Shown piece after piece: positions 5,399 through 30,996 of a stretch of DNA of 38,829 bases (its first letter is position 1; each line of letters begins with the position of its first letter). A program made the translations under genes and the position numbers. A model generated the notes under the pieces. The model was not told where the DNA came from, did not search any database, and saw nothing but the letters and a program-made list of their open reading frames with translations. Where the stretch lies: the IMG/VR virus record IMGVR_UViG_3300020395_000036, positions 1 through 38,829 of that record, one strand, 5' to 3'. This DNA comes from a virus. Taxonomy: Duplodnaviria; Caudoviricetes.

Positions 5399-8300
5399 AT
5401 GAGTATAGAATTTGAGAAGAGAGTTCAAGTAAATAGGATTATTGAGAGTCAGCTACCCGAATTTGTGGTTGCTGATTTTCCATTAGCTACAGAACTATTA
5501 AAAACTTACTACATTTCCCAAGAAAATCAAGGTGCTAACGCAGATTTACTTGATAATCTTGATCGGTATATTAAAGTTGACAATTTAGTTCCTGAAGTTA
5601 TTACTGGAACTACTACTTTAACTAAAGAAGTAGTCATAACTGAAACAGAAATTCTAGTTAATTCTACTAAGGGATTTCCTTCTTCATATGGTCTTTTAAA
5701 GATTGATAATGAAATTATTACATATACTGGAAAAACAGATACTAGTTTTACTGGATGTATTCGTGGATTTAGTGGAGTTACTGGGCATCATGTTGGTATA
5801 TCATCATCTTTAGATCATGTTAATAGTGAGCATTTAGTATTTGAGGATACCAATGCCTCTGGTCATGCTAACGAATCTACAGTTACTAATCTTAGTGTTT
5901 TATTCTTACAAGAGTTCTATAAGAAGATAAAGAGGACATTTTTACCTGGATTAGAAGATAATAAGTTTGCTGATGGTATTGATGTTGGTAATTTTATAAA
6001 GAATGCTAGATCATTTTACCAATCAAAAGGTATTGCAGAATCGATTAGAATACTTTTTAAAGTATTATATGGTGTTGAAGCAGAAGTTATAGATCTTGAA
6101 GAACGTTTGGTTAAACCATCAAGTGCTGAATATATTCGTAGAGAAATTATTATTGCTGATGCTCTTAATGGTGAAGCTCAAAATTTAGTTGGACAAACAA
6201 TATTTAAATCAACTGATTTAAGAACTAATGCTTCAGTATCAGAAGTTGAAGTTTTAACTAGAGATAATAAACTTTATTATAAATTATCTCTTTTTGTAGG
6301 ATTTAATGATAAAGATTTAATAGAAGGTACATTTACTATACCTGGCAAAACAAAGGTATTGGAGCAAGTTGTTCCTGGTGAATCTATTGTTTCGGTAGAT
6401 AGTACTATTGGATTTGGGCAGACTGGTAACTTTACAGTAGATTATCTTGATGGTAATGTTGGAATTATTACATATACCTCTAAAACAGTTAATCAATTCT
6501 TTGGATGTAGTGATATAACTGGTAATATTGGAATTGCTAGTGATTTAAGATCAACCGAAACTATATTTGGGTATGAAAATGGTGATTTAAGTAAGAGAGT
6601 TGATTTAAGAATTACTGGAGTAGTATCTGATTTTGTTCCAGAGTCTGATATAGCATTAATTTCAGAAAGACAGGAGATAACTGTAAAGAATGTAGGTGAA
6701 TTTATTCAAAATCCATCAGAAACTACTCAATCATATAAACAAATATTTGCTAATTCTTGGATTTATAATACAAGTTCTAGATATGAAATAAATGGATCAA
6801 TTAATAGTGGTACAACATCATTTACCTTTTTAAGTAAAATTGATAAGTCTAGTTTAAAGGTTGGTGATAGTTTTGATATTATTCGCAGAGGAACTAATAT
6901 TAGAGTTGGTGGTGGTATAGTTAAGAGGATTGATAGTGATTATGTATTTACTGGAGAAGGTGTTAACTATATTGCTAATGAACCACATTCTTCTGTATTT
7001 TATGATATAAGAAGGAATTTAAGGAAAGCAAATTATGATACTGGAAATCCTAATGCAATAAAGTTGTCTGATGGTACTAATAAGATTATTGCGGATACTT
7101 TAAATGTTTATGTTGATAGGGATGATTTTGGATATGCTGCTTCTAACTCATTATCAAGTCATAAGATCAATCAGGAACCATTAAATGGCACTATTCCATC
7201 TGGAGCACCTCCTAATATACAAACAGGTACTATTAATGCTCTAACAGGGGTTGAGATTGATTTTACAGAGATTAAGTTTGCTGAGAAGGTTAAGTTCCGT
7301 ACTGGAGATTCGATAATTTATACTTCTGACAAACCACTTCTTGGTTTGAATAATGGATCTAAGTATTTTGTTAAATCAGATTCTACTGAAAAGGTTATAA
7401 GGTTATATGATACAATTAATGCGATTGAAAGAGATGCTGCTAAAGAATTTAATCAACCATCAGATCCAAATGCAACGCATACATTTACATTAGAAGATCA
7501 TTACAATAAAGAAATAATACCAAACAATATTTTAAGAAAATTTTCTCTTGGTCAAGATTTAAATATACCTTCAAAAGAGCAAAAACAATCTAAAAATATT
7601 GGATTATTGATTAATGGTGTTCAATTAAGATCTAACACCAATGATGATTTTATAACTTATGGACCAATTGAAAAAACAGAAGTATATAATTCTGGTGAAG
7701 GATATGATGTAGTTAATCCACCTAAAATTAGAGTAGGAAATGCTAATACCTTTATAAAACCAAATGGAACTGTTGGTATTGGTACGACAGCACTTGTAGA
7801 ACCAGTTATTAGGGGAAATGTTAAGGAAATATTGGTAGATCCACAAGATTTTGATATTGATAATGTTTCTTCAGTAAGATTGACTGGTGGTAATGGTAAG
7901 GATTGCTTCTTACAACCAGTAGTTGGACCAAGATATAGAGAAGTTGAGTTTGATAGTAGAGATATCTTCTTCTCAGGTGGATTGGATGTACAAGAAGAGA
8001 CTATAACATTCAAATCTGAGCATAATTTTGTTGATGGGCAATTAATTTATTATAATAAGAATGGTCAAGATGCTATTGGAATTACACCATTTAAATCAGC
8101 AGCAACAACCGTAACAGAATATCTTGTAAATGGAGCACCTTATTATGTTAAGGTACTTAATCCAAAGAGAATTAGGTTATTTAAGAGACCTGAAGAGGCT
8201 ACATTTGGTGTAGCTGGTATTAATACTATAGGATTTTCTACAGCAACAACTGCTGCTGGTATTCATAAGTTTAGAACAGAAGCTAAAAATACGTTAAATT

Positions 8301-11300
8301 CTGTAAAAGTTATTAATCCTGGTTACGATTATCAATATAGAAAATTACCAGTAAGTCCATCTGGAATTTCTACTTCTTATGATACTATTAATTTTGTAAA
8401 TCATGGATTTAGAGATGGTGATATTGTTGAATATTCGACTGATGGAACTACTATTGAGGGATTGGATACCTCATTGTCATATCTTGTTATTAAGATAGAT
8501 GCTAATTCCTTTAGATTAGCAAAATCTGATGCTGTTGGTGTAGCAAGAACCGATTTTGAAAGAGGAAAATATGTTGATTTAAGATCAACTGGAACTGGAT
8601 ATCAAATATTCAAATACCCTGATATCAAAATAGAAACTACTGTAAGTTTTGCCACAACAGTTACTGGATCATATGAAGGAAAAATAACTCCTATTATTGA
8701 AGGTGAGATAATTGATGCATACACCTATGATAATGGTAGTAATTATGGTTCATCCATTATTAATCATATTATTAAACCTGACGTTGAGATAATAAATGGA
8801 AAAGGTGCTGAAATAAAGGCATTTATAGATGCTGGTAAGATTTTAGATATTATTGTTCTTAATGGTGGTCAAGAATATAACTCATTACCACATATAAAAA
8901 TAGAAGGTCCTACTGGTAATGGAGCAATATTAAGACCAATTATCTCTAATGGTAAATTGGATGATATTGTTGTTATTAATCCTGGTATTGGATATTCTTC
9001 AACTGATACTAATGTTTATGTTGATCCTAGAGGAAAGAACGGGTTATTAAGTCCACAAATAAGAAGATTGGAGATAGATGATATTCAGAAGAGAGGTATG
9101 AATATTCATTTAGAACCTAGTGGAGATGATGGTTTAATATATGAAGTAAAGGCATATGACCAATCATTAAGAGATGAATTTGGTGACTCTGGTATTAATA
9201 ATGCTGGTATAGGTACTCATTCACCCCTAATAGGATGGGCATATGATGGAAATCCAATATATGGTGCTTTTGGTTATTCTGTACCAAATGATATTGGTGA
9301 AGTTAAGAGATTAAAATCTGGATATGTTAAAGATAACACTTGGTATGATCGCCCAGAGCAAGATTCTGGATATTTTCTTGATGATTATAAATTTGATGGT
9401 AGTGGTGATTTAGACAAATATAATGGTAGATTTTGTAAAACACCTGAGTTTCCAAATGGTGTTTATGCTTATTTTGCGACATTAGATGAAAATGAAAATC
9501 CACAATATCCATATTTTATAGGAAAAACCTATAGATCACCATTTATTTCTGATAATCTTTCTTTAAATCAGAAATTTGATTTCAATAATTCAACTCTTTC
9601 TAGAAATACTTTACCATATAAAGTAAATGATAGGTATGCGAATAATGATTTTATTATTGAATCTAATGAAATTATTAAACAAAAATCAGTTATTGAATCT
9701 GTAACTAGGGGTGTTGTAGATACATTCCAAGTTTTAGATGGTGGAAAAAATTATAAGGTAGGTGATTTTACTTCATTTGATAATGAAGGTACTGGTGGTA
9801 GTGGTGCTAGAGGTCAAGTTGATCGTATTGTTGGTATTGGTGTTTCTAATATTAAGACTGAATTAACTACATTTGAGAATGCTACTCTCATTTGGAAAGA
9901 TGCCCAAACAGTTGAAGCACACTTTTTACCAAAAATTGAGTTAAATGATCAAGATACTGTATTAATTTCTGGATTAAGTACTGCTAATTACAAATTAAAC
10001 AACTCATTTAAGGTTGGTATTAGTACCGATATTATTGGATTAGCAAAGACAATGACTGTCAATAATAATCCAAATGGAAAAACTGAGGATATTTACGTAA
10101 ATATTATACCAAATACTGTATCTGTTGGTGGTTCTTTACGAGTTGGTGATGAAACTCTTAAAGTATTAAACCTATATGGTTTAGAAAAGATAATTAGGGT
10201 ACAAAGATATGGAACAGGTATTGGTCATACTTATAGTTCTGAGATAGATGTATTAAACAATAGAATAAGTATTCCTGTCAAATCTAATTATTTTGATTCA
10301 AAATTAAATGACTTAGTACATTTTAATGGTCATCAGTCTGTAGGTTTAGGTACTACTTGTGGATCAGTAATTGATTATGAGTATGGTGAGATTACAAATA
10401 CTACAAATGTCCCTCAACAAAGCATTTACTTACCAGGTCATCCATTTAGTAATGGGCAGAAGATTAAATTATCAAAACCATTAACTGCTACTTCATTCTT
10501 GGTTAGTAGAGATGATGATGCATCAAACCAATTCTATATTCCAGACCAATCAACCGCTATTTCAGAATTATATGTTGTAGATAAAGGTACTGATTATATT
10601 GGTCTTGCTACTAATGTTGGTGCTGCCAGTACCGAAAGTGGATTATTCTTCTTTGGTAATGGTGATAATAATTATCAATATCTAATAGAATCTGATCATG
10701 ATCAGTTAACTGCTAATATTGATAGAGTAGTTTCTACAGTTACTACAAAAGTAGCATTGGCAAATACAACTACTCATGGATTGGCAGTAGGTGATCTAAT
10801 TGATTTAGATGTTGTCCCTAACATTGCTGTTGGTATTGGATCCACTGCTCCATTAACTGTTTCATTTAATGATGAGCATCAGAAACTATTAATTAATGAA
10901 GTTAGTTTCAATGCTACCGCAGTTGTATTAAACACTGATACAATCACCATACCTGATCATGGATATAAGACTGGTACTAAGGTATTTTATGATAATCAGG
11001 AAATAATATCAGGATCGTCTTTAGTTGGTGGTCTTTCTGTTGGGGCATATTATGTCCATACAATTGACTCAAATACTATTAATTTGTGTGAAACATATAA
11101 AGATTCTATAGTAACTCCTCCTAGAATAGTAGATTTAACTGGACAAGGCAATAATAAGCATACTTTATCATTAATTAACCCACCAATTACAGTTGTTAAA
11201 AATTCAGATTTAACATTTGGAGTTGGTTCAACCTCATTAGAGAATTATAAATTAAAATTCTTCTATGATAGAGAATTTAAGAATGAATTTGTAAATGCTA

Positions 11301-14300
11301 CCAGTTATGACCCATTAGAATCTGTTCAAGCATCATTTAGTGTTGTTGGTGTTGGAACTGTTGGTGTTGGAACATTCTCATCTAGTCCTGTAGTTGGTGC
11401 TGCTGTATCAATTGGATTCAGTACTGCTTGTCCATCGGTATTATATTATGCTCTTGAGCATAATGGGTATATTAGTACTGCTGATACAGGTGTATATGAT
11501 TATTCAGAAATCAGATTTGTAGATAGTGCTTATAGTGGAGAATTTAGAGTATTTGATGTTGATGATGAAACATTTAAGATTTCTCCTAGATCAGTACCTG
11601 AAGTATTAGAATATCATGATAATCAGTGTGATTTATTTGAGTATTCTAGTAAATCTGGAAATATAGTTGGACCTATTAAGTCTATAAAAACAATTTCTGA
11701 AGGATTTAGTTATAAGAGTATACCTGGATTTACTTCTATTACTAGTGCTGATGGTGAAAATGCTAATGTTGTGGCATTATCAACATCTATTGGTAGAATT
11801 AATAACTTAAGAATTATTGATTATGGATTTGAATATTCTGCTGATAAAACTTTAAGACCTGAGGCATATATTTCACCTATTGTTAGAGTTGATGATTTAG
11901 ATGTAATTGAGTCTATTAAAGTTATTAATCCTGGAGCAGAATATTTAAGTGCTCCTGATGTAATCCTATTCAACCCAGAATCTAAAAAGGTTGTTGATAC
12001 TACTTCATTACTGGCAACTGTTCCTAACCAAGGAATATCTGAAATTAACGTAATAGCACCAATTAAAGGTTTAGATTCTGTAAACCATAGAGTTATTACT
12101 ATCAATAATTCTAATGGTATAGGAATTGTTTCTATGACTACAGAAGGCACTGTTGCCAGATGTGTAATGGAAACACCGATCAATGGATATGATGTTCCAC
12201 CATTTGCTCCTGGTGATGAAATATTTGTTGAAGGTATATTAATGGGTTGGGAATCTGGTATTGGTACTCAGACTTCTTCAACTGCTGGTATTTCTACAGA
12301 AGGAACAGGATATAACTCAGAAGATTATGATTATCAGTTCTTAAAGGTTAAATCTTATGATTCATCAAACCCAGATGTACTGAAATTTGATTTGGTTGGT
12401 TTAACTACAAATCCAGGAATTGCTAAAACATATCAGACTGGATATGCTAATATAGTTAACCGTAAGAATTATCCAGTATTTGAGACTGATCAAAAGAGAG
12501 CAGAATTTACAATTAGTGAAAATTTATTGGTTAGTCAAGGAAATCCTTTTGTGAAGAGTGATCTTACTGTTACTGAAACAAGAGATGATTATATTAAGGT
12601 AGATGGTTTAGATAATCTTAGAATTGGAGATAGAATAGCTGGAGAATCTTCAGGAACTAGTGCTACTGTTGTTGGTATTGATAACCAATACGCTAAATTT
12701 AATGTTGATTATTCCAATAGACAAGATTATGGGTGGACTGATAATACTGGTAAATTAAGCGAAGATTTCCAAGTAACACCCAATAATGATTATTTCCAAA
12801 ATTTATCATACTCCATTAAGAGTGAAAAAACATGGGATGATATTGTAGATCCTGTTAATAGGTTGGTTCATCCTGCTGGACTCAAGAATTTTGCAGATAC
12901 TGTTGTTGAAACTACATTAGTAGGTGTTGGTATTGGATCCACATTCTTTACTACACCAACATTAGTTCTTGATGTGGTTGGTGAGAGAAGGGTAGATACT
13001 ATTAATGATTTTGATCTTGGTATTGATTTTGAACCAAGAGAATCTGGAAATACTCGTGATTCTAAGTTTGTTGATTTCCAAAATGCTAAATTAACAGATT
13101 ATAGTAAGTGTAAGACAAATAGAGTATTGATACATGATGATATAAGTGGAAGATTCTCAAGTAAAGGAATACAGGATTTATTTACAGAAATAGAAGAACT
13201 TAATACAAATTATGCTCGTTATTTGGTTCAAATTGTTGATGCTGATACATTTGATATTCAGATTAGTGATTTAATAGTATTAACTTCTACAGAAAATGCT
13301 TATTTGATTGAGAAATCATTAGATTACTCTAATATGAAATTGGGTGATTTTTCTGCTGATGTTGATTACTTTAAGAGAAAAACTTTATTATTTACCCCAA
13401 CAGATAAGTTTGATAAGGATCATGATATTAAACTCCTTAAGACTTCATTTAATACTGATAATATTACAGATGGTACAAAAGAATTTGGGTCTGTTGATTT
13501 AATTGGTAACAATGTTTCTGTTAGTGCTGGTCGAACAATGTTCTCAGCAACTATTAGTGGAACTACACTAACAACAACTGATTTTGATCTTCTTGGTCTT
13601 AAGCATGTAAATGGACTTCCTACTACAGATTCTTTGGTCGGAATCGGTACTACAGTATCTGGTTTGGGTCTAATAAAGGATACTCTAGGTAATGAACTTA
13701 CTGAGATTGTAAGTATTGATAGTTCAAGTACAGCAACAATAAAGATCAATCCTGATACTACTCCAAATGCTCCCACAGTACCTTCTACTTACACTACACC
13801 TGTTACGGGTCAATTTGGATTTATCAACACCCCATACTTCGTTAACAACGGTGTTGGTGGATTAGATCCAGTAGCAGTTCCTATTGGTGTTAGTACATCA
13901 AATATTATGGAATTTGCTGATACTAATTGTAATGCTTTCTATGCTAGTGTTGTTGCTAAGGATGATGTTACTGGTGAATTAGATTATACAGAAGCAATTG
14001 TTAATGTTAATGGTAGTGATGTATCAATATCTCAACTTTATGCTGATTTAACTCAGACTTCTCTCAGTATTATTGATAATGGAACGGTTGGTATATTAAC
14101 CGCAAGTTATGATTCTGGTACTATTAAATTTGATTGTATTAATGAAAGGCGTTCTACTATAAGATTAAGTACATCTGTTGTTGGATTAGGTACAACTAGT
14201 GCTGGTATAGGAACCTATAGATTTAACGTTCCTGGGCAACCACAAGGGGCAGAAAGAACTGCTAGGTATGAATCAACATATAACACAACTGAAGTTGGTA

Positions 14301-17300
14301 CAGGTGTAACTGTGGCATCAATTGATAGAACTATTGATAGTACTGTTAAATCTATTATTAAAGTTAGACAGGGTGATAAATTTGCTATACATCAACCAAT
14401 TCTAATACATGATCAGAATAATGATGCTATTACTGTTCAATATCCTCATATTGGTGAAGTTTCTGGTTTAGGTACTTTTGGATCAGAAACAGATACTCAA
14501 AATGTAAATTTAGTATTCTATCCAGATGATACTGGATTAGTTGAGGTTCAATCATATAATGAAGTCTTTAATACTATTAACGATTTTGCTAATGAACCAG
14601 ATGTTCTACAATATGGTCCTGTTACTAGTGATCTATTATTAACATCATATGATGGTGTTAACGGAACAAGAGGTAATAAAGTTAATTTCAATTTAACATA
14701 TCAAGGTATTCCAATATATGTTAAGAAATTTAATCCTACAGACACTACAAGGGTTATAACAGATTCAACTCCAGGTGCTGGAACTACTTTCGCTATACCA
14801 AATCATTTCTTTAATACAAATGAAGAATTAACTTATACACCAGAATCTACTTTTATTGGTGTTCCTCCTGTTTCAGTTGGAATCGCTGCTACATTAGATG
14901 CTGATGGTAGTTTAGTTACTGTTATGCCATCAAAAGTATTTGTTAAGGCAGGTAGTGCTGATAAATTCCAAATATATTCTAGAAAAGAATATATTGATGT
15001 AGGAAATCCAATAACAATAACAACTAATGGTTCTGGTAATGCTCATAAGTTTGAGATGACCAAGAAATTGAGTAAAACTGTTATTGGTCTTGATGGAATT
15101 GTTCAACAACCAGTTACATATACTGCGATAAAGCATAGTTTACCTTCTAATATTGGTATTGGAATTTCTCAATTTGCTTTAAGTGGAATTAGTTCAGTTC
15201 AACCAAGAGATGTATTAAAGATTAATAATGAGTATATGAAGGTTGAGCAAGTTGGATTTGCCACAGAAGTTGATGCGACAATTAACTCTAGTGAGGATTG
15301 GGCATCCATACCTGTAGTTAGGGTTAAGAGAGGTGCTTTAGGAATTGATGCTTCTACTCATAGTGCTGGAGACGAAGTAAGAATACATAGAGGTTCATTC
15401 AATATTGTTGATAGTACAGCATGGTTCTTAGATCCACCTAAAGGTAATACTAGATCAAGAAGAAATGATACTAATATTCCTTATGTTAGAGCAGAATATA
15501 GTGGTAGAACATTCTTAAGGACAAATTATGATACCAACATGGTATTTGATGATATTTCAGATTCCTTTACTGGAATAGGTAAGACATACACATTAACTGT
15601 TGGTGGTGCTAATACTGTTACTGGTGTTGGTGTTGGAAATGGAATTCTATTCATTAATGGGGTATTCCAGACACCATTAACTTTAAACAACTTAGGTAAT
15701 AATTATGAAATAGAAGGAAATGCTACTGCTGGCGTATCTAGTGTTACATTTACTGGAATTAGTTCTGAAAATGGACAAAAAATCGAATCTGAGTTTGATA
15801 TTAATCAAAATCAACTTCCAAGAGGTGGACTCATTGTTTCTATGGGATCAACGACTGGACTTGGTTATGCTCCTTTAGTTGGTGCTAGAGTTTTAGCAAA
15901 AGAAACTAATGGTGTACTTGATAGTATTGTAAGCATTGCTTCTTCAGTAGGTCCTATTGGTTCTGGTATTGAGACTGCTCATTATGATCCTGTTACTGGA
16001 ATTATGACAGTTACAACTAATACTGTTCATGGTTTTGCTTTAGAGAGTCCAGAAACAGTTAAATTAGAAGATCTACATTTTACTTGCCCAACATACACTA
16101 TTGGTCAACCTATTACTGGTACAACATATAATCCAGCAACAGGTGATATGGTTATAAAAATTGCTGGTCATGGACTTTCAAATGGTGATTCAGTTAAATT
16201 AAAAGAAGAATCAATCACATTTAGTTGTGGATTTGGTGGTGCTACTGGTTCTGCTGCTGAAAAGTCATATCCTAGAAAGACTGATCCTGCCTATGACAGA
16301 TATATGTACATATCTGATGTTACTACTGATACTTTCAAGGTTAATGTACTATTTGGAGTAACACCTACCAATACAGATGCACATACATTTGTAAGTGCTA
16401 CTACTGATTGTGTCCAATCACTAAACTATATTGGAGTTACTACATCAATATTCCAAAATCACGAAAGACCTATTCCATTGGTTGGAGTAACTTCAGAAAG
16501 AAGTTTCCAAGTTAATGTTGGTATTACTAGTATTCATCACAACTATTTGAAAGGTGGTGGTGTATATGCGTTCTATGATGAGTTGACACCAGGATCTGGA
16601 TATCGTGAACCAGTTTCTATTGGTGTTACTGATATCAATTATCTTCATAAGTTTGTAAGTGCTACTACAGATGCGATAACAGCATATACAGGATCATTCA
16701 TGGGTCAGAATCTAAATCCAACTTTAGCGGATTATAATTCTGAAACTGGTAGTTTATTATTCACAACAGAGGTACATGGAATACCAGAACCAGTTGATCT
16801 TGATATTAATGATGCTAAGTATGATGCTAGAGTTGGTATTTTAACAGCATATGCTGGTACAAATTTTGATGTTAGTGGTGCTACATATGATCCAACAACA
16901 GGTAATATGGTTCTTGAAATTGGAGATCATGATGTAGATACTAATGATAAAGTTAAGATTGCTCCAAATTCAATAACATTTAGTTGTACTTTTGACAATC
17001 AGGTTGGTATAGATTCTCACAAATCATATCCTAGATCTTCTGGAACAGGTAATGCTGGTGGAGGTGCTGATCCAGCATATGATACTTATTTGAATGTTAT
17101 TGCTGCTGATAAATTAGCTGGAACAATTACTGTAAAAGTATTAACAACAACACCATCAACAAATACAGATCCTCATTTATTCGTAAGTGCTACTGATGGT
17201 TGTGTATTTGTTCCAAGAGTCTTTACTAATAATGAACAAGTTAAGTTTGTAGATGGAGCAATTACCTTCAAATGTGATATGGATGGTAATACTACAGAGC

Positions 17301-20300
17301 ATCCTTATCCAAGATTAAGTGATCCAGCAAGAGATAAGTGGTTATTAGTTTCTCAAGCAAATAATAATAAGTTTGAGGTTCAGGTTGGAATGAGTCCATT
17401 AGTTGGTTGGACTCCACAATTAACAGGTACGAGTTATGATCCAAATACTGGATTAATGGTTCTTGAAATAGGAGCTCATACTCTAAAAGCTGGTGAAAGA
17501 GTTAGATTAGATCCATTATCATTGAAGTTTAGTTGTGGATTTGGTGGTGCTACTGGTTCTGCTGCTGAAAAGTCATATCCAAGATCTACTGATCCTTATT
17601 ATAACACTGCTATTCCAATTCAATCGGTAACAGAGACTTCTATTACACTACAAGTATTGACTTCTGTACCCTCAACAAACACAGATCCTCATACATTTGT
17701 CAGTGCTACTACTGGTGCTGTTAAGTCTGGTGGTTTCTATCCACATACTTATGTTTCATCTATAGCAAAGGGTGTGAGAGCAACAAAATCAATGAAGATT
17801 GCTACCAATTCATTAACCTTTAAGTGTTCTAAAGATAACTTCATTGGAAATCATACTTATCCAAGAGCAACTGATCCTGCATATGATACATTCTTACCTA
17901 TTACTGGTGCTTCACAGAATACACTATTAACCAATATTGGACCTGGTGGTGGAGCAGGAACTGGAGCAGTTGTAACCGCAATGGTAGCACCAAATAGACA
18001 TAAGTTTGTAAATGCTATTGGAACACACAAATATGTTGATTCTATAAGTGATGCTGTTACTGTTGCTGGTGTTAAGAGAGATGTTAGTAATGCTGTTTAT
18101 ACTCCAAGTACAGGAGATTTCACATTAACAATCGGTAATCATAGTTTCACTACTAGTGATACAGTAACTATTGCTCCCAAAGCAATAATCATGACATGTG
18201 ATGCTGATTCTCATGGATCAAATCATGCTTATCCAAGACCAACTGATCCAGCATATAATACTCCTTTAGCAATTACTGCTGTAACTGCTCAAAAAATTAC
18301 ATGTAATGTTGGAAAACCTGCACAGATAGAAAGTGTAACTGCTGATGTTGGTGGTCCATTTACTGCTAATACTGCTGCTTATGATCCTCAGTCTGGTATT
18401 ATGACAGTAACTACTGCTAATGCTCATGGATTTACCGCTTCAGATACGTTATCTACAAATACTGCAATATATGACCCAAGAGCTGGTGTTTGTACTATAA
18501 CTACAACTACTAATCATGGATTATCTAATGGTGATTGGGTTAAGTTAGAAGATAATTCTATATTCTTTGAGTGTTCTGAGGACAATTATGCTAGTGAGCA
18601 TTCTTATCCAAGAAGTACTGATCCTTTATCTAATAAGTGGGTTCAAATTACAATTGACGGTGCTGATAAAATTGAAATTCAAGCATTATCAACACTACCT
18701 TCTACAAATATTTCAGCACATCAATATCTACGTTCTGTAGAAAATAACATTCAGAAAGCAAATAATAGAGTTAAATTTGCTACTGGATCTTTAGTTTTCC
18801 AGTGTAACAAAGATCAGTACTCCACAAACCATGCTTATCCAAGAACAACTGATCCATATTATGATACCTTTATGGGTGTAGAGACTATTGTTTCTACTAA
18901 GAAATTTACTGTAAATGTTGGTAAATCTCCTGCTGGTACTGGTGGTGCTTTAGAATTTACTATTGTGGATGGTGGATCTGGATATGTAAATCCAGAATTA
19001 ATGATTCCTCAACCAGTTTATGAAGATATGCCTATAGTTGGTGTTTCTAGACTAGGTGTAGGTAAGACTACAGATACTGGTGAGAACCTATTGCTTAACA
19101 TAAAGGTAGGATCTGCTTCAACTGCTGTTGGTATAGGATCAACATTATTTGAAATATCAGATTTTGCTATATCAAGACCTGGTCATTCATTTAAGGTTGG
19201 TGATAGATTTAAGCCTATTGGATTGGTTACATCTTCAGAATTAAGAGAACCTCTTAAAGAGTTTGAACTTGAAGTTGTTGAAATCTTTAATGATTTCTTT
19301 GCTGCTTGGCAGTTTGGTGAAATTGACTTTATTGATAATATCGAAAATCTCCAGAATGGTGTTAGAAGAAGATTCCCATTATTCTTTAATGGACAACTAT
19401 TAAGTTTTGAAACTGATGAAAATGATTCTATATCTTCAGATATAGATTTGAATGCAGTATTACTTATTTTTGTTAATGGTGTTATTCAGACACCTGGTAT
19501 CGCTTATCAGTTTGAAGGTGGTGCTACATTTACATTCACTGAAGCACCTGATACAGGTGATAAAGTTGATATATTCTTCTATCTTGGACAAAGAGGTATT
19601 GATGTTGAGATTATCGACATTCAAGAAACAATAAAACCAGGTGATGATATTAGATTACTTCGTTATGTTCCTGGTAGATTAGATCAAAATAGAAATAGAA
19701 CAGTTAAAGAAATATTATCTTCTGATATTCTTGAAACTGACATTTATACAGGTCCAGGTATTGATAGTTTGGATGATTTTATATGGAGACCAGTTGATTG
19801 GGAAAAACAGAAGGTTGATAAGATTATTGAAGGTAGTTTAGTAAGTAAAGATAGAGAATCTATTGAACCCTGTGTTTACCCTACAGCAAAAGTTATTTCA
19901 GATGTTAAAATTGATTCTGGTATAGGTCTTGATTTACAAGATGGAATATTTGTAGATGATGCTGAAATTTTCTTCTATGAAGAAGGACCACTTCGTCTTC
20001 CTAGTTCTGAGCGTTATGGTGTTACAGTAGATGCTGTAGATACCATCTTAATGCCAGCAGCTCCAGATCAAACTCCTGCAGATGTTACTTTAGTTTTGGG
20101 TAATAATGTTGGTACTGGAAATACTGAGGTTACTTCATATACAATTGCTAACAATGGTAAAGGTTATTTGACTACACCTACTGTTAGAATATCAAATCCA
20201 CCAGAAATTGGTGTTGGTATTGGATCTACTGCTACTGCTACAGCAACAATTTCAAATGGATCTTTGACAGCATTAACAATTACAAGTTCTGGATATGGAT

Positions 20301-20932
20301 ATAAGGTAGCACCTCAAGTGATAATTGAAAATCCTTTATATAAGACTGAAGATGTTAATCTTATTAAGTATGGACAAGGATTTACTGGTATTATTACAGG
20401 TATAGGAACTGCTGTTGGAACTGGTGGACATCCACTTGCTCTTGAGTTCTTCTTTAACGTAACTGATGGTAAGCAAGCAAGTTTACTTCAGGCAGGATAT
20501 CCAATTCTAGTTAAAGAAACATCTATTGGTGATGGTGTTACTTCTGTTGATAGTCATGATACTTCAATTGTTGGTATAGGAACAACCTTCCTAGATAATA
20601 TTTACAAGGTACATTCAATAACTGTAGCAGGTGATAAGGTTGCCAAGATTAAGTGTAATGTACTAAGTACAACTAACCATGTAGGTTTAGCTTCTACAGG
20701 TAGATATCTAACTGGAAATGTTGGGGTAACTACTTGTTTGGGTAAAATTACTTGGGGTAGATTATATGGAGACACCACAACTAGAGAAGCAAGTCCAATT
20801 TCAATTGGTGTAACTGGACTTACTATTGATTCTGGTTTATCTACATTCCCAACAATTCAAAGGAGAAATAATGTATTGGGTTCTCTTAAAGGATTGAGGA
20901 ATACAGGTGCTATTAGATTACAAGTATTATAA
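5399..20932 (+). CDS. gp7: giant baseplate wedge initiator gp7 (5177 aa) with repeat and accessory domains
   Basis: Between gp6 and gp8; IESQLPEFV, FIKNARSFYQSKG..SIRILFKVLYG, DYFQNLSYSIKS..LVHPAGLKNF gp7 core motifs; many G.GY repeats; YHYH-type domain. Confidence 0.88.
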   Translation: MSIEFEKRVQVNRIIESQLPEFVVADFPLATELLKTYYISQENQGANADLLDNLDRYIKVDNLVPEVITGTTTLTKEVVITETEILVNSTKGFPSSYGLLKIDNEIITYTGKTDTSFTGCIRGFSGVTGHHVGISSSLDHVNSEHLVFEDTNASGHANESTVTNLSVLFLQEFYKKIKRTFLPGLEDNKFADGIDVGNFIKNARSFYQSKGIAESIRILFKVLYGVEAEVIDLEERLVKPSSAEYIRREIIIADALNGEAQNLVGQTIFKSTDLRTNASVSEVEVLTRDNKLYYKLSLFVGFNDKDLIEGTFTIPGKTKVLEQVVPGESIVSVDSTIGFGQTGNFTVDYLDGNVGIITYTSKTVNQFFGCSDITGNIGIASDLRSTETIFGYENGDLSKRVDLRITGVVSDFVPESDIALISERQEITVKNVGEFIQNPSETTQSYKQIFANSWIYNTSSRYEINGSINSGTTSFTFLSKIDKSSLKVGDSFDIIRRGTNIRVGGGIVKRIDSDYVFTGEGVNYIANEPHSSVFYDIRRNLRKANYDTGNPNAIKLSDGTNKIIADTLNVYVDRDDFGYAASNSLSSHKINQEPLNGTIPSGAPPNIQTGTINALTGVEIDFTEIKFAEKVKFRTGDSIIYTSDKPLLGLNNGSKYFVKSDSTEKVIRLYDTINAIERDAAKEFNQPSDPNATHTFTLEDHYNKEIIPNNILRKFSLGQDLNIPSKEQKQSKNIGLLINGVQLRSNTNDDFITYGPIEKTEVYNSGEGYDVVNPPKIRVGNANTFIKPNGTVGIGTTALVEPVIRGNVKEILVDPQDFDIDNVSSVRLTGGNGKDCFLQPVVGPRYREVEFDSRDIFFSGGLDVQEETITFKSEHNFVDGQLIYYNKNGQDAIGITPFKSAATTVTEYLVNGAPYYVKVLNPKRIRLFKRPEEATFGVAGINTIGFSTATTAAGIHKFRTEAKNTLNSVKVINPGYDYQYRKLPVSPSGISTSYDTINFVNHGFRDGDIVEYSTDGTTIEGLDTSLSYLVIKIDANSFRLAKSDAVGVARTDFERGKYVDLRSTGTGYQIFKYPDIKIETTVSFATTVTGSYEGKITPIIEGEIIDAYTYDNGSNYGSSIINHIIKPDVEIINGKGAEIKAFIDAGKILDIIVLNGGQEYNSLPHIKIEGPTGNGAILRPIISNGKLDDIVVINPGIGYSSTDTNVYVDPRGKNGLLSPQIRRLEIDDIQKRGMNIHLEPSGDDGLIYEVKAYDQSLRDEFGDSGINNAGIGTHSPLIGWAYDGNPIYGAFGYSVPNDIGEVKRLKSGYVKDNTWYDRPEQDSGYFLDDYKFDGSGDLDKYNGRFCKTPEFPNGVYAYFATLDENENPQYPYFIGKTYRSPFISDNLSLNQKFDFNNSTLSRNTLPYKVNDRYANNDFIIESNEIIKQKSVIESVTRGVVDTFQVLDGGKNYKVGDFTSFDNEGTGGSGARGQVDRIVGIGVSNIKTELTTFENATLIWKDAQTVEAHFLPKIELNDQDTVLISGLSTANYKLNNSFKVGISTDIIGLAKTMTVNNNPNGKTEDIYVNIIPNTVSVGGSLRVGDETLKVLNLYGLEKIIRVQRYGTGIGHTYSSEIDVLNNRISIPVKSNYFDSKLNDLVHFNGHQSVGLGTTCGSVIDYEYGEITNTTNVPQQSIYLPGHPFSNGQKIKLSKPLTATSFLVSRDDDASNQFYIPDQSTAISELYVVDKGTDYIGLATNVGAASTESGLFFFGNGDNNYQYLIESDHDQLTANIDRVVSTVTTKVALANTTTHGLAVGDLIDLDVVPNIAVGIGSTAPLTVSFNDEHQKLLINEVSFNATAVVLNTDTITIPDHGYKTGTKVFYDNQEIISGSSLVGGLSVGAYYVHTIDSNTINLCETYKDSIVTPPRIVDLTGQGNNKHTLSLINPPITVVKNSDLTFGVGSTSLENYKLKFFYDREFKNEFVNATSYDPLESVQASFSVVGVGTVGVGTFSSSPVVGAAVSIGFSTACPSVLYYALEHNGYISTADTGVYDYSEIRFVDSAYSGEFRVFDVDDETFKISPRSVPEVLEYHDNQCDLFEYSSKSGNIVGPIKSIKTISEGFSYKSIPGFTSITSADGENANVVALSTSIGRINNLRIIDYGFEYSADKTLRPEAYISPIVRVDDLDVIESIKVINPGAEYLSAPDVILFNPESKKVVDTTSLLATVPNQGISEINVIAPIKGLDSVNHRVITINNSNGIGIVSMTTEGTVARCVMETPINGYDVPPFAPGDEIFVEGILMGWESGIGTQTSSTAGISTEGTGYNSEDYDYQFLKVKSYDSSNPDVLKFDLVGLTTNPGIAKTYQTGYANIVNRKNYPVFETDQKRAEFTISENLLVSQGNPFVKSDLTVTETRDDYIKVDGLDNLRIGDRIAGESSGTSATVVGIDNQYAKFNVDYSNRQDYGWTDNTGKLSEDFQVTPNNDYFQNLSYSIKSEKTWDDIVDPVNRLVHPAGLKNFADTVVETTLVGVGIGSTFFTTPTLVLDVVGERRVDTINDFDLGIDFEPRESGNTRDSKFVDFQNAKLTDYSKCKTNRVLIHDDISGRFSSKGIQDLFTEIEELNTNYARYLVQIVDADTFDIQISDLIVLTSTENAYLIEKSLDYSNMKLGDFSADVDYFKRKTLLFTPTDKFDKDHDIKLLKTSFNTDNITDGTKEFGSVDLIGNNVSVSAGRTMFSATISGTTLTTTDFDLLGLKHVNGLPTTDSLVGIGTTVSGLGLIKDTLGNELTEIVSIDSSSTATIKINPDTTPNAPTVPSTYTTPVTGQFGFINTPYFVNNGVGGLDPVAVPIGVSTSNIMEFADTNCNAFYASVVAKDDVTGELDYTEAIVNVNGSDVSISQLYADLTQTSLSIIDNGTVGILTASYDSGTIKFDCINERRSTIRLSTSVVGLGTTSAGIGTYRFNVPGQPQGAERTARYESTYNTTEVGTGVTVASIDRTIDSTVKSIIKVRQGDKFAIHQPILIHDQNNDAITVQYPHIGEVSGLGTFGSETDTQNVNLVFYPDDTGLVEVQSYNEVFNTINDFANEPDVLQYGPVTSDLLLTSYDGVNGTRGNKVNFNLTYQGIPIYVKKFNPTDTTRVITDSTPGAGTTFAIPNHFFNTNEELTYTPESTFIGVPPVSVGIAATLDADGSLVTVMPSKVFVKAGSADKFQIYSRKEYIDVGNPITITTNGSGNAHKFEMTKKLSKTVIGLDGIVQQPVTYTAIKHSLPSNIGIGISQFALSGISSVQPRDVLKINNEYMKVEQVGFATEVDATINSSEDWASIPVVRVKRGALGIDASTHSAGDEVRIHRGSFNIVDSTAWFLDPPKGNTRSRRNDTNIPYVRAEYSGRTFLRTNYDTNMVFDDISDSFTGIGKTYTLTVGGANTVTGVGVGNGILFINGVFQTPLTLNNLGNNYEIEGNATAGVSSVTFTGISSENGQKIESEFDINQNQLPRGGLIVSMGSTTGLGYAPLVGARVLAKETNGVLDSIVSIASSVGPIGSGIETAHYDPVTGIMTVTTNTVHGFALESPETVKLEDLHFTCPTYTIGQPITGTTYNPATGDMVIKIAGHGLSNGDSVKLKEESITFSCGFGGATGSAAEKSYPRKTDPAYDRYMYISDVTTDTFKVNVLFGVTPTNTDAHTFVSATTDCVQSLNYIGVTTSIFQNHERPIPLVGVTSERSFQVNVGITSIHHNYLKGGGVYAFYDELTPGSGYREPVSIGVTDINYLHKFVSATTDAITAYTGSFMGQNLNPTLADYNSETGSLLFTTEVHGIPEPVDLDINDAKYDARVGILTAYAGTNFDVSGATYDPTTGNMVLEIGDHDVDTNDKVKIAPNSITFSCTFDNQVGIDSHKSYPRSSGTGNAGGGADPAYDTYLNVIAADKLAGTITVKVLTTTPSTNTDPHLFVSATDGCVFVPRVFTNNEQVKFVDGAITFKCDMDGNTTEHPYPRLSDPARDKWLLVSQANNNKFEVQVGMSPLVGWTPQLTGTSYDPNTGLMVLEIGAHTLKAGERVRLDPLSLKFSCGFGGATGSAAEKSYPRSTDPYYNTAIPIQSVTETSITLQVLTSVPSTNTDPHTFVSATTGAVKSGGFYPHTYVSSIAKGVRATKSMKIATNSLTFKCSKDNFIGNHTYPRATDPAYDTFLPITGASQNTLLTNIGPGGGAGTGAVVTAMVAPNRHKFVNAIGTHKYVDSISDAVTVAGVKRDVSNAVYTPSTGDFTLTIGNHSFTTSDTVTIAPKAIIMTCDADSHGSNHAYPRPTDPAYNTPLAITAVTAQKITCNVGKPAQIESVTADVGGPFTANTAAYDPQSGIMTVTTANAHGFTASDTLSTNTAIYDPRAGVCTITTTTNHGLSNGDWVKLEDNSIFFECSEDNYASEHSYPRSTDPLSNKWVQITIDGADKIEIQALSTLPSTNISAHQYLRSVENNIQKANNRVKFATGSLVFQCNKDQYSTNHAYPRTTDPYYDTFMGVETIVSTKKFTVNVGKSPAGTGGALEFTIVDGGSGYVNPELMIPQPVYEDMPIVGVSRLGVGKTTDTGENLLLNIKVGSASTAVGIGSTLFEISDFAISRPGHSFKVGDRFKPIGLVTSSELREPLKEFELEVVEIFNDFFAAWQFGEIDFIDNIENLQNGVRRRFPLFFNGQLLSFETDENDSISSDIDLNAVLLIFVNGVIQTPGIAYQFEGGATFTFTEAPDTGDKVDIFFYLGQRGIDVEIIDIQETIKPGDDIRLLRYVPGRLDQNRNRTVKEILSSDILETDIYTGPGIDSLDDFIWRPVDWEKQKVDKIIEGSLVSKDRESIEPCVYPTAKVISDVKIDSGIGLDLQDGIFVDDAEIFFYEEGPLRLPSSERYGVTVDAVDTILMPAAPDQTPADVTLVLGNNVGTGNTEVTSYTIANNGKGYLTTPTVRISNPPEIGVGIGSTATATATISNGSLTALTITSSGYGYKVAPQVIIENPLYKTEDVNLIKYGQGFTGIITGIGTAVGTGGHPLALEFFFNVTDGKQASLLQAGYPILVKETSIGDGVTSVDSHDTSIVGIGTTFLDNIYKVHSITVAGDKVAKIKCNVLSTTNHVGLASTGRYLTGNVGVTTCLGKITWGRLYGDTTTREASPISIGVTGLTIDSGLSTFPTIQRRNNVLGSLKGLRNTGAIRLQVL
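9218..9525 (+). other. YHYH-family-like domain within gp7
   Basis: HSPLIGWAYDGNPIYG...DLDKYNGRFCKTPEFPNGVYAYF...YPYFIG. Confidence 0.75.
16220..16272 (+). repeat. 53-nt exact direct repeat, copy 1
   Basis: tttagttgtggatttggtggtgctactggttctgctgctgaaaagtcatatcc, identical to 17528-17580. Confidence 0.9.
17528..17580 (+). repeat. 53-nt exact direct repeat, copy 2
   Basis: Identical to 16220-16272 (encodes FSCGFGGATGSAAEKSYP). Confidence 0.9.
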
Positions 20933-30208: not shown

Positions 30209-30342
30209 GGAATTCTGTAAATCCAGCAACTAAATTTATTATAGATCCTAGTGGATCTGGTAAATTAGTAAAATTTCATCTCCCAATAGATCTTAGAACT
30301 GTTGAGGATAAATTAAAACAATATCCGTTTAATCAGATATGA
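30205..30342 (+). CDS. hypothetical protein (45 aa; not in the ORF track)
   Basis: GTG start overlaps the vrlC stop (GTGA) and its stop overlaps the next ATG (ATGA): MRNSVNPATKFIIDPSGSGKLVKFHLPIDLRTVEDKLKQYPFNQI*. Confidence 0.6.
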   Translation: MRNSVNPATKFIIDPSGSGKLVKFHLPIDLRTVEDKLKQYPFNQI

Positions 30343-30539
30343 AAACCTTTAAACAGTTTATAGAAGATTACTCAGTTGGTGGTGGTTTAACACCTAAACA
30401 GATGTTAGGTCCTGGTACTCAGTGGTTTAGAACTCCTGCTGAAAAAATGAAAGAAAATCAAAGATTTATAAGAGTTGCTCCAGGATTTATTCCAAATTGG
30501 TTACAAGCAAAAAAATCCAAATCAGTTAAAAAAGCATGA
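30339..30539 (+). CDS. small basic protein with a T4 capsid-targeting-like N-terminus (candidate internal head protein)
   Basis: MKTFKQFIED resembles the T4 IPII/IPIII targeting sequence MKTYQEFIAE. Confidence 0.65.
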   Translation: MKTFKQFIEDYSVGGGLTPKQMLGPGTQWFRTPAEKMKENQRFIRVAPGFIPNWLQAKKSKSVKKA

Positions 30540-30736
30540 TACCAGTTGAAGGACATAAAGATCTATTTCGTGATGAGAAAACAGGTGCTATAGTCAGTAC
30601 GGATACTAGTGGATATAGTAACTATATTACTAGAAAAAACAAAAAACTTGATGAAAGAGCAGAATTGGATGCGATGAAGAATGATATTAATGAGATTAAA
30701 CAACTACTTAAGAATTTAACTAATCAGATAACATAA
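30536..30736 (+). CDS. conserved T4-like hypothetical protein (C-terminal coiled coil)
   Basis: PVEGH..LFRD..TGAIV N-terminus, then EL..MK.DI.EIK.LL heptads; usual position after vrlC. Confidence 0.8.
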   Translation: MIPVEGHKDLFRDEKTGAIVSTDTSGYSNYITRKNKKLDERAELDAMKNDINEIKQLLKNLTNQIT

Positions 30737-30743
30737 ATAAATA
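30733..30743 (+). promoter_or_regulatory. late promoter (two overlapping ATAAATA)
   Basis: ATAAATA at 30733-30739 and 30737-30743, upstream of ATG 30769. Confidence 0.65.
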
Positions 30744-30768
30744 TATAGATTCTGAATTGCTTACATAA

Positions 30769-30996
30769 ATGGCAGACATTAAGGTACGAATTGGGCAACA
30801 TAATGCAGTGAAGGTTGTTTCCTCACTTGCTGGTGCTCAGGGACTATCTCTCTCAGAGCTCAGTGATGTCAATGCCTCGACTCTGTTAAATGGAATGGTA
30901 TTAGTCTACAATTCAGCAACCCAGAAATGGGATGCTACTAATGAATTAACACCTGGAACGGAACAAAATTTAAACATTAACGGGGGTAACTTTTAA
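30769..30996 (+). CDS. small virion structural protein (fibre-associated)
   Basis: LSELSDV....NG.VLVYN....KW motif typical of phage fibre repeats; ends INGGNF like the LDGGTF end of the next gene. Confidence 0.7.
   Translation: MADIKVRIGQHNAVKVVSSLAGAQGLSLSELSDVNASTLLNGMVLVYNSATQKWDATNELTPGTEQNLNINGGNF

Follow-up and report, generated by a model that had tools for sequence, protein, structure and literature searches.

Few proteins are built by recursive domain insertion. The best-described example is Si3 of cyanobacterial RNA polymerase beta' (RpoC2), in which SBHM/HABAS domains are recursively self-inserted in a bifurcating manner (PMC13114784, PMC11515920, PMC10895346). Si3 has eight domains on six levels (PMC13114784), and its domains are domain-swapped (PMC11515920). 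Neither 'phage' nor 'viral' is found as a word in the main text of the survey of 2026 (PMC13114784). Here we analyse a stretch of 38,829 nucleotides of tailed-phage DNA (IMG/VR record IMGVR_UViG_3300020395_000036; hereafter 'the window'), in which a small domain appears to be nested within copies of itself. The host gene is a single open reading frame (ORF; 5399..20932, + strand; 5,177 aa) that, judged by its neighbours and profile matches, is gp7 of a P-SSM2-like, T4-type marine cyanophage, the baseplate wedge initiator of T4-like cyanophages. An earlier note, made from the letters of this DNA alone, knew of no description of the architecture. In general one exists, given the published recursion of Si3; for virion proteins, a search mainly of openly accessible main texts returned no description of nested self-insertion.

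Two small barrels also bear on this locus. The barrel of the K1F endosialidase, a phage enzyme, binds polysialic acid and is described as a hotspot of host discrimination (10.1101/2025.10.06.680778). FCCH domains are reported to face outward on siphovirus tail tubes (PMC13576161), and a weak FCCH match is mentioned for Avs-1 gp23 (PMC13612043). In P-SSM2 itself, Sullivan et al. (2005) pointed to complex repeats in orf111, which they likened to tandem fibre motifs (PMC1079782).

The nested region of gp7

The region holds nine copies of a unit of about 105 aa, which parse as 1[X], A[B[C][D]] and F[E][G], brackets enclosing a copy lodged within another. Motif counts are nine Y.P.TG-type starts (15983, 16127, 16733, 16820, 16886, 17435, 18098, 18380 and 18470), nine [FM]xC, nine H.[FY][VL] strands and eight YPR; a tenth match to the start pattern, at 18860, was discarded as spurious. 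The motif positions given in the earlier note are thereby confirmed. Its claim of nine copies also stands, but not that of a full motif set in each: copy B lacks the first His of the unit, and YPR is present in only eight of the nine because copy 1 belongs to a second subtype, FxC..GVTT[ST]IF[PQ]D. YPR occurs nowhere in the other ~4,100 residues of gp7, where [FM]xC occurs twice. With the missing YPR of copy 1 counted as a closing mark, the order of start, Cys and YPR marks parses as balanced brackets, which none of 300,000 random orders did.

A hidden Markov model (HMM) built from the contiguous copies X, C, D and G matched copy E and, in bracket order, the split pieces, as the earlier note had anticipated (profile positions 3-41 at 15968-16087, 25-81 at 17225-17386, 21-77 at 17765-17926, 2-81 at 18080-18310, 3-29 at 18365-18448 and 25-83 at 18755-18925). 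The same model did not find the unit in eight other ORFs of the window.

Along the + strand, the pieces run as follows. Backbone piece 1 (PRGG...; 15818..15961) starts a Gly-rich stretch that is continuous, at 115-116 aa, in the empty alleles of S-SRM01 (L132) and S-SKS1 (L133). It is followed by the N-terminal part of copy 1 (15962..16087), of the YPR-less subtype, which runs to FTC. Directly after this Cys lies the complete copy X (16088..16417), a 110-aa block missing in L160, L162, L057 and L122, and copy 1 then resumes (GVTTSIFQ...VNVG...HHNY; 16418..16579); it is uninterrupted in L112, L113, L115, L116 and L122. Allele comparison set the limits of this last part and of backbone piece 2 (PGSGY...SIGVTD; 16580..16636). 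The second tree opens with the N-terminal part of copy A (16637..16789), which is circularly permuted, with its HKFV strand first, and is uninterrupted in L111-L116 and L119. Motifs and alleles place piece 1 of copy B next (YDARVG; 16790..16870), and within B lie two complete copies at the third level: C (16871..17221), which is a single 351-nt in-frame gap in L142, an allele otherwise 87% identical to the window over aligned residues, and D (17396..17728; motifs and HMM match). They are separated by piece 2 of B (FKC...YPR...VQVG; 17222..17395; HMM match) and followed by its piece 3, with the closing HTYV strand (17729..17779; motifs), after which A resumes (KSMKI..FKC..YPRATDP..NIG; 17780..17944), as located by the HMM match and the uninterrupted-A alleles. 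Beyond backbone piece 3 (GGGAGTGAVVTAMV; 17945..17986; allele comparison), the third tree starts with piece 1 of the circularly permuted copy F (HKFV strand; 17987..18016; motifs and alleles). The complete and likewise permuted copy E comes next (18017..18325), a 103-aa block missing in L160, L162 and L057, and missing also in L021 and L150. HMM matches identify piece 2 of F (YDPQSG..HGF; 18326..18445), the complete copy G (18446..18757) and piece 3 of F (NNRVKF..FQC..YPR..VNVG; 18758..18934), and allele comparison gives backbone piece 4 (GTGGALEF...GVSRLG; 18935..19057). The three trees thus fill three gaps in a single Gly-rich backbone, which runs without interruption in the empty alleles; this amounts to an additional outer level. 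For the copy limits proposed earlier, the nesting order stood, and the edges of X, C and E moved to those given here.

Five different loops serve as entry points. C enters B behind the first hairpin, and D enters it ahead of the last strand; B in A and G in F both follow the His turn; X sits behind the Cys of copy 1, and E behind the permuted first strand of F. Separately, L003 and L005 have 68 aa of unrelated sequence inserted behind the YPR loop in the last F piece, which makes a sixth entry point, here for a guest that is not a barrel (seen by alignment in L003 and by equal length in L005). Copies A (in the uninterrupted alleles), E and F start with the H.[FY]V strand, and X, B, C, D and G end with it; the circular permutation noticed earlier is therefore real for A in uninterrupted alleles and for E in the window itself. 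Insertion and circular permutation both need domain termini that lie close together. Since bracket order, HMM order and uninterrupted alleles agree on nesting three deep rather than in tandem, we regard the nested architecture as highly probable.

An allele ladder and the turnover of copies

Alleles were cut between the anchors PRGG and GVSRLG, both present in 52 orthologous stretches (the truncated L023 was excluded here and from a comparison of loops, from which L001 and L139, near-identical to the window, were also left out). Their lengths form a ladder from zero to ten copies, with a slope of 110 aa per [FM]xC (r 0.99): 115-116 aa (0 copies), 218-219 (1), 314-326 (2), 437-441 (3) and 537 on the lower rungs, and 855-876 (7), 963-988 (8), 1,071-1,092 (9), 1,147 and 1,184 (P-SSM2, 10) on the upper ones. 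This is the comparison across cyanophage gp7 proteins that the earlier note had proposed, and it came out as the nesting predicts. L122-L124 carry copy 1 alone, L112, L113, L115 and L116 carry copies 1 and A, both uninterrupted, and L111, L114 and L119 carry 1[X] plus A; the whole F tree (316 aa) is missing in L113, L115, L111, L122 and L132. Single inner copies (X, C, E) are gained or lost as whole blocks with clean gaps. Together with the uninterrupted copies 1 and A, these blocks bear out the earlier proposal that the region grew by insertion of whole domains into loops. Every combination of presence and absence of C and E is represented (window +/+, L021 +/-, L142 -/+, L030 -/-), a pattern that requires either recombination or gains and losses that happened repeatedly. 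S-T4, Sf-CH8, S-CAM7 and ACG-2014f, in which the anchor pattern failed, lie outside the 52; their first site holds at least two copies of the copy-1 subtype. In S-T4 (L134) and Sf-CH8 (L135), the 1[X] site holds a larger YPR-less array (FxC..GVTTTIFPD), apparently nested as well.

Traces of exchange were found between copies. From Cys to YPR, a 57-nt tract of X (16220..16276, + strand) is identical at 56 of 57 positions to its counterpart in D (17528..17584, + strand; nucleotide comparison), and the 81 nt upstream are 57% identical. Over 15 loci, identity of the two tracts is 0.925 within genomes versus 0.887 between genomes, with no comparable excess upstream (0.575 versus 0.571). The tracts also co-vary, both reading FGG in the window and both YNG in L013, L142 and L070. 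The test used those 15 of 34 stretches that have a 14-residue loop in both X and D; left out were L057, L160 and L162, which lack X, and others with another loop in either copy. Its permutation value (0/100,000) is not a true probability because the 15 loci are related. These observations are suggestive of gene conversion of the Cys-to-YPR loop between X and D. On a larger scale, D is 72% identical to a copy in another protein class (L054) versus at most 57% to any sibling copy. L054 (1-10482) belongs to a different gp7-like family, of the phrog_701/18802 type, and its residues 1127-1367 correspond to the middle of B through D to the C-terminal part of A (55% over 242 aa), a B[D]-like pre-nested block. 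This closeness and the shared block suggest that pre-nested blocks travel from gene to gene. At the ends of the C insert, the one junction inspected by eye, no direct repeat could be seen. Taken together, turnover of copies driven by recombination seems likely to us.

Outside the window, the unit profile returned 757 representatives at E<=0.001 among 1.84 billion. Among the carriers that were classified (10 ORFs), all are baseplate, virion and fibre-class proteins; tail-fibre-class proteins thus contain the unit as well. Giant proteins of gp7-like or fibre type (L045, L037, L040, L052 and L075) hold 16-28 copies, with up to seven successive closing strands, which points to deeper nesting. In L045, L037 and L040, starts, Cys marks and closing strands balance at 22, 19 and 16. 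An automatic bracket parser, in which copies without YPR had no mark to close them, made 0-4 errors and failed to close 0-6 copies per giant protein. The window is a shallow case, at three levels, and longer balanced arrays exist in related proteins.

The assignment of the host gene to gp7, also made earlier, is supported by its position between gp6 and gp8, by a gene order matching that around P-SSM2 gp7, and by a profile search in which phrog_2885 (baseplate wedge subunit) matched the two halves of the ORF at 2,428 and 1,407 bits. The nearest records with an annotation are those of Marine virus AG-345-F15 (65%) and P-SSM2 gp7 (36% over the region), and each of the 378 matching records bears a Synechococcus, Cyanophage, Prochlorococcus or Marine virus name. 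Upstream lie gp25 and gp6, and downstream gp8, a DUF4815 protein, gp13, gp14, gp15 and the small terminase. T4 gp7 is a baseplate protein, and by this analogy and the record annotations the product would sit in the virion baseplate.

Other features of gp7 and of the window were also seen. Further barrels that lack the Cys, of H.[FL]..G[DQ] type, lie in gp7 at ~7990-8280, 8380-8620 and 10420-10720, the one near 8380-8520 with a weak End_beta_barrel match (E 0.004). At ~10760-11600 there is, by eye, a possible mixed nest, in which a Cys-less barrel is split by an unrelated domain that itself appears to hold a complete Cys-less barrel. A YHYH domain (PF14240, E 1e-22) lies at ~9215-9493. In S-SSM7 (L082, 1902-20996), gp7 is annotated as two halves of ~3,000 aa with a 340-aa virion protein between them; this 340-aa ORF was considered as a stand-alone barrel unit and rejected by eye. 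Elsewhere in the window, a 771-aa ORF 3' of the small terminase (36362-38677) has a strong A skew and no Pfam or PHROG matches, and some 790 bases (30209-30996) are without any ORF of at least 80 aa; the corresponding part of P-SSM2 contains several short genes.

Predicted fold and possible roles of the barrels

Copy X, folded with 103 aligned copies, gave a model with a predicted local distance difference test (pLDDT) score of 95 and a predicted TM-score (pTM) of 0.86. The unit is predicted to be a six-stranded beta-barrel resembling the endosialidase barrel and the E1 FCCH domain. Its best matches among solved structures were the phi92 endosialidase barrel (Z 6.6, root-mean-square deviation (rmsd) 2.3, 73 aligned) and E1 FCCH (Z 6.0), followed at lower rank by phage tail proteins and reductase-type barrels; the model of copy G matched UBA6/UBA1 FCCH with Z up to 8.8 (rmsd 2.5, 76 aligned). 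In a search of predicted viral structures, those matches at E<=0.001 that carry names were cyanophage tail, fibre, baseplate and uncharacterised proteins. A Foldseek search of the single unit against the PDB gave no match at E<=0.001, one with the whole regional model gave diffuse matches only (TM <=0.07), and the 103-copy profile had 11 matches at E<=10 to sequences of solved structures (best 0.039), none convincing.

The regional model (1,080 residues, pLDDT 75) was built from 50 orthologous rows that omitted the short alleles with uninterrupted A, so that it does not lean on them. Most barrel pieces have pLDDT 64-91, except the stretch 204-216 of copy 1, which is under 50. Copies X, C, D, E and G align as self-contained barrels (model residues 91-206, 346-466, 527-639, 731-835 and 874-985). 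Known barrels also aligned across split copies: 3a35_A (72 aligned, rmsd 3.3), 9io5_D (56, 2.2) and 8vjh_D (67, 2.9) across B (324-658), 8ck1_A (75 aligned, rmsd 3.0) across copy 1 (43-252) and 8i4m_A (62 aligned, rmsd 3.4, Z 3.5) across part of F (847-1035). Since compact barrels align at 2.2-3.4 Å over these ranges, the separated pieces would have to sit together, which indirectly suggests that split copies 1, B and F are reassembled in this model.

These results suggest a model whereby the nine copies likely fold into three branched, outward-facing clusters, which would give the baseplate many weak contacts to host surface sugars. We put the probability of this reading at roughly 0.55. With barrel ends that would lie side by side, a copy could be plugged into any surface loop, including those of its own copies, while its host stays folded; recombination between similar copies would supply, swap and remove units, and a copy number of 0-10 at one spot would make an adjustable appendage for gripping the host surface. 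A branched appendage on the baseplate, exposed on the virion surface and binding host lipopolysaccharide or another glycan, is what we infer from analogy: the unit occurs in baseplate, virion and fibre-class proteins, and the nearest phage fold binds polysialic acid. Host-surface binding by the gp7 barrels, taken alone, is about an even call. The trees are a specific, variable candidate for host attachment in Prochlorococcus and Synechococcus myoviruses.

Several points weigh against this reading, in addition to the relatedness of the 15 loci in the conversion test. The barrel match is middling, the fold is common, and it is no evidence of function. The tree is dispensable for the cultured phages S-SRM01 and S-SKS1, which carry no copy at this site. 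The regional model has a low pTM (0.41) and all four backbone pieces have pLDDT under 50, which leaves it undemonstrated that the outer host domain is folded. Reassembly is read from fold-search ranges, each defined just by its first and last aligned residue, rather than from predicted aligned errors or coordinates; no row spans copy A (274-709), and two rows straddle copies (1ep3_B, 325-696; 5vj7_B, 351-517). Rejoined A, B and F score 83-89 bits on the unit profile versus 73-93 for four mispaired controls, and rejoined copy 1 scores just 26 bits. Since mispaired halves score like cognate ones, the profile cannot choose the pairing, and this scoring was dropped as a pairing test. Among the aligned alleles none was seen that lacks D alone or G alone. 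In the uninterrupted A alleles, the C-terminal half has the C-terminal part of window A as its best match in six of seven, and the N-terminal half has A in only four of seven, with E in the other three. Finally, L142 has probably lost C secondarily, judged from the sequence of its B, which means that trees shrink as well as grow.

Could the barrels be nested and yet bind nothing specific? They might then serve as a spacer, as a shield against proteases or grazers or as a brace of the baseplate, having accumulated near-neutrally through recombination. Empty alleles in cultured phages and the 0-10 range would fit such a role, as would the presence among the nearest folds of FCCH domains, which have no sugar role, and the report that most substitutions in the K1F barrel are tolerated (10.1101/2025.10.06.680778). 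However, Cys, Tyr and Pro are invariant and Arg and Asp nearly so across 103 aligned copies (partly circular, as the set was picked by a profile holding these motifs), and the unit is confined to the baseplate, virion and fibre-class proteins among the ORFs classified; we consider this explanation somewhat unlikely. Quite improbable, in our view, is a gene that is nested but encodes an interdigitated protein, with strands swapped between copies into a rigid rod or plate. The domain swapping reported for Si3 (PMC11515920), the equal scores of mispaired halves and the two straddling rows are in its favour, but any of X, C and E can be taken out whole with unchanged flanks, and five copies align as self-contained barrels.

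The Cys is present in 9/9 window copies and 116/116 contiguous copies, and short loops often read C-x2-D-x5-H-x-YPR. A metal site in each barrel (Cys plus His/Asp), making the region a multivalent metal-binding or metal-mimic appendage, would account for both, yet X, C and D retain the Cys in loops without the Asp/His pattern, copy B does without the first His, and both conserved His recur, by eye, in the Cys-less barrels of gp7. The metal or ligand site proposed in the earlier note is therefore not supported, and we think this explanation very doubtful. That the region consists of degenerate tandem repeats, whose partial copies never reassemble, is hardly credible. Although the P-SSM2 orf111 repeats were once compared with tandem motifs (PMC1079782), the motif counts balance (9/9/9/8), most split pieces are modelled at pLDDT 64-91 apart from residues 204-216 of copy 1, and the uninterrupted alleles join exactly the predicted halves, which largely refutes this view.

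Returning to branched clusters that bind the host, a further step is more tentative, and we would sooner doubt than assert it: a self-assembling protein tree may be a marine cyanophage route to varied attachment, in which barrels are plugged by recombination into five of their own loops, pre-nested cassettes are moved between baseplate and fibre genes, and the Cys-YPR binding loop is homogenised by gene conversion. If true, this would join module swapping, point hypervariation and tandem expansion as a fourth way of varying receptor binding, and its whole 0-to-10 history could be read in living alleles. The barrel, naturally tolerant of insertions and with five usable loops and two permutants, also offers a scaffold for branched single-chain proteins.

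Comparison with known systems

Among relatives, P-SSM2 gp7 (AAX44489; Salacisavirus; 5,195 aa) is an orthologue with the tree at the same site and 35.6% identity over the region. It differs in having ten copies, in lacking C and in carrying two extra units in the third tree. Among barrels of similar predicted fold, that of the endosialidases (PF12195; phi92 4hiz, K1F 1v0e/3gvk/3ju4) is likewise a small barrel of a phage tail protein (Z 6.6-7.4, rmsd 2.1-2.5), but it occurs once per chain inside an enzyme and is not self-nested. The superposition covers 73-80 of ~105 residues, with the Cys-loop-YPR element apparently outside. PF12195 had no match in the gp7 half holding the region and matched 4 of the 103 copies at E<=0.1 (best 0.0028); a Pfam search of the gp7 ORF found no propeller domain. 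The E1 FCCH domain (PF16190) is a six-stranded closed barrel as well (Z 6.0-8.8), with FCCH-like domains described as facing outward on tail tubes, but it is present in single copy. The gp7 half holding the region misses the PF16190 gathering score (16.4 versus 29.5 bits); at E<=0.1 the family matched 9 of the 103 copies (best 4e-05), with no match to window copy X.

In its build, the region is closest to Si3 as described in the papers cited above. Both place one small beta domain within its own copies, with bifurcating nodes, 8-10 domains and circularly permuted family variants, and A[B[C][D]] follows the A1-B1-C-B2-A2 pattern of recursive self-insertion. However, the Si3 domain is a four-stranded open sheet, whereas the gp7 unit is predicted to be a six-stranded closed barrel; the top matches are six-stranded barrels, and the rows listed include no HABAS/SBHM domain. 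Si3 is part of an enzyme subunit, fixed within its lineage, six levels deep and partly domain-swapped, whereas the gp7 tree lies outside RNA polymerase beta', in a virion protein, is three levels deep, and varies from 0 to 10 copies among relatives with signs of ongoing recombination. Because Si3 is fixed, the growth of its trees cannot be watched; related phages retain near-complete rungs from empty to ten copies, with independent branches, so that rules of growth become directly testable. What is new here is this near-complete allele ladder together with the traces of recombination. The gp7 tree is thus built like Si3, probably without its unit being a member of the HABAS family, and its predicted fold is near the endosialidase and FCCH barrels, below the Pfam cut-offs of both.

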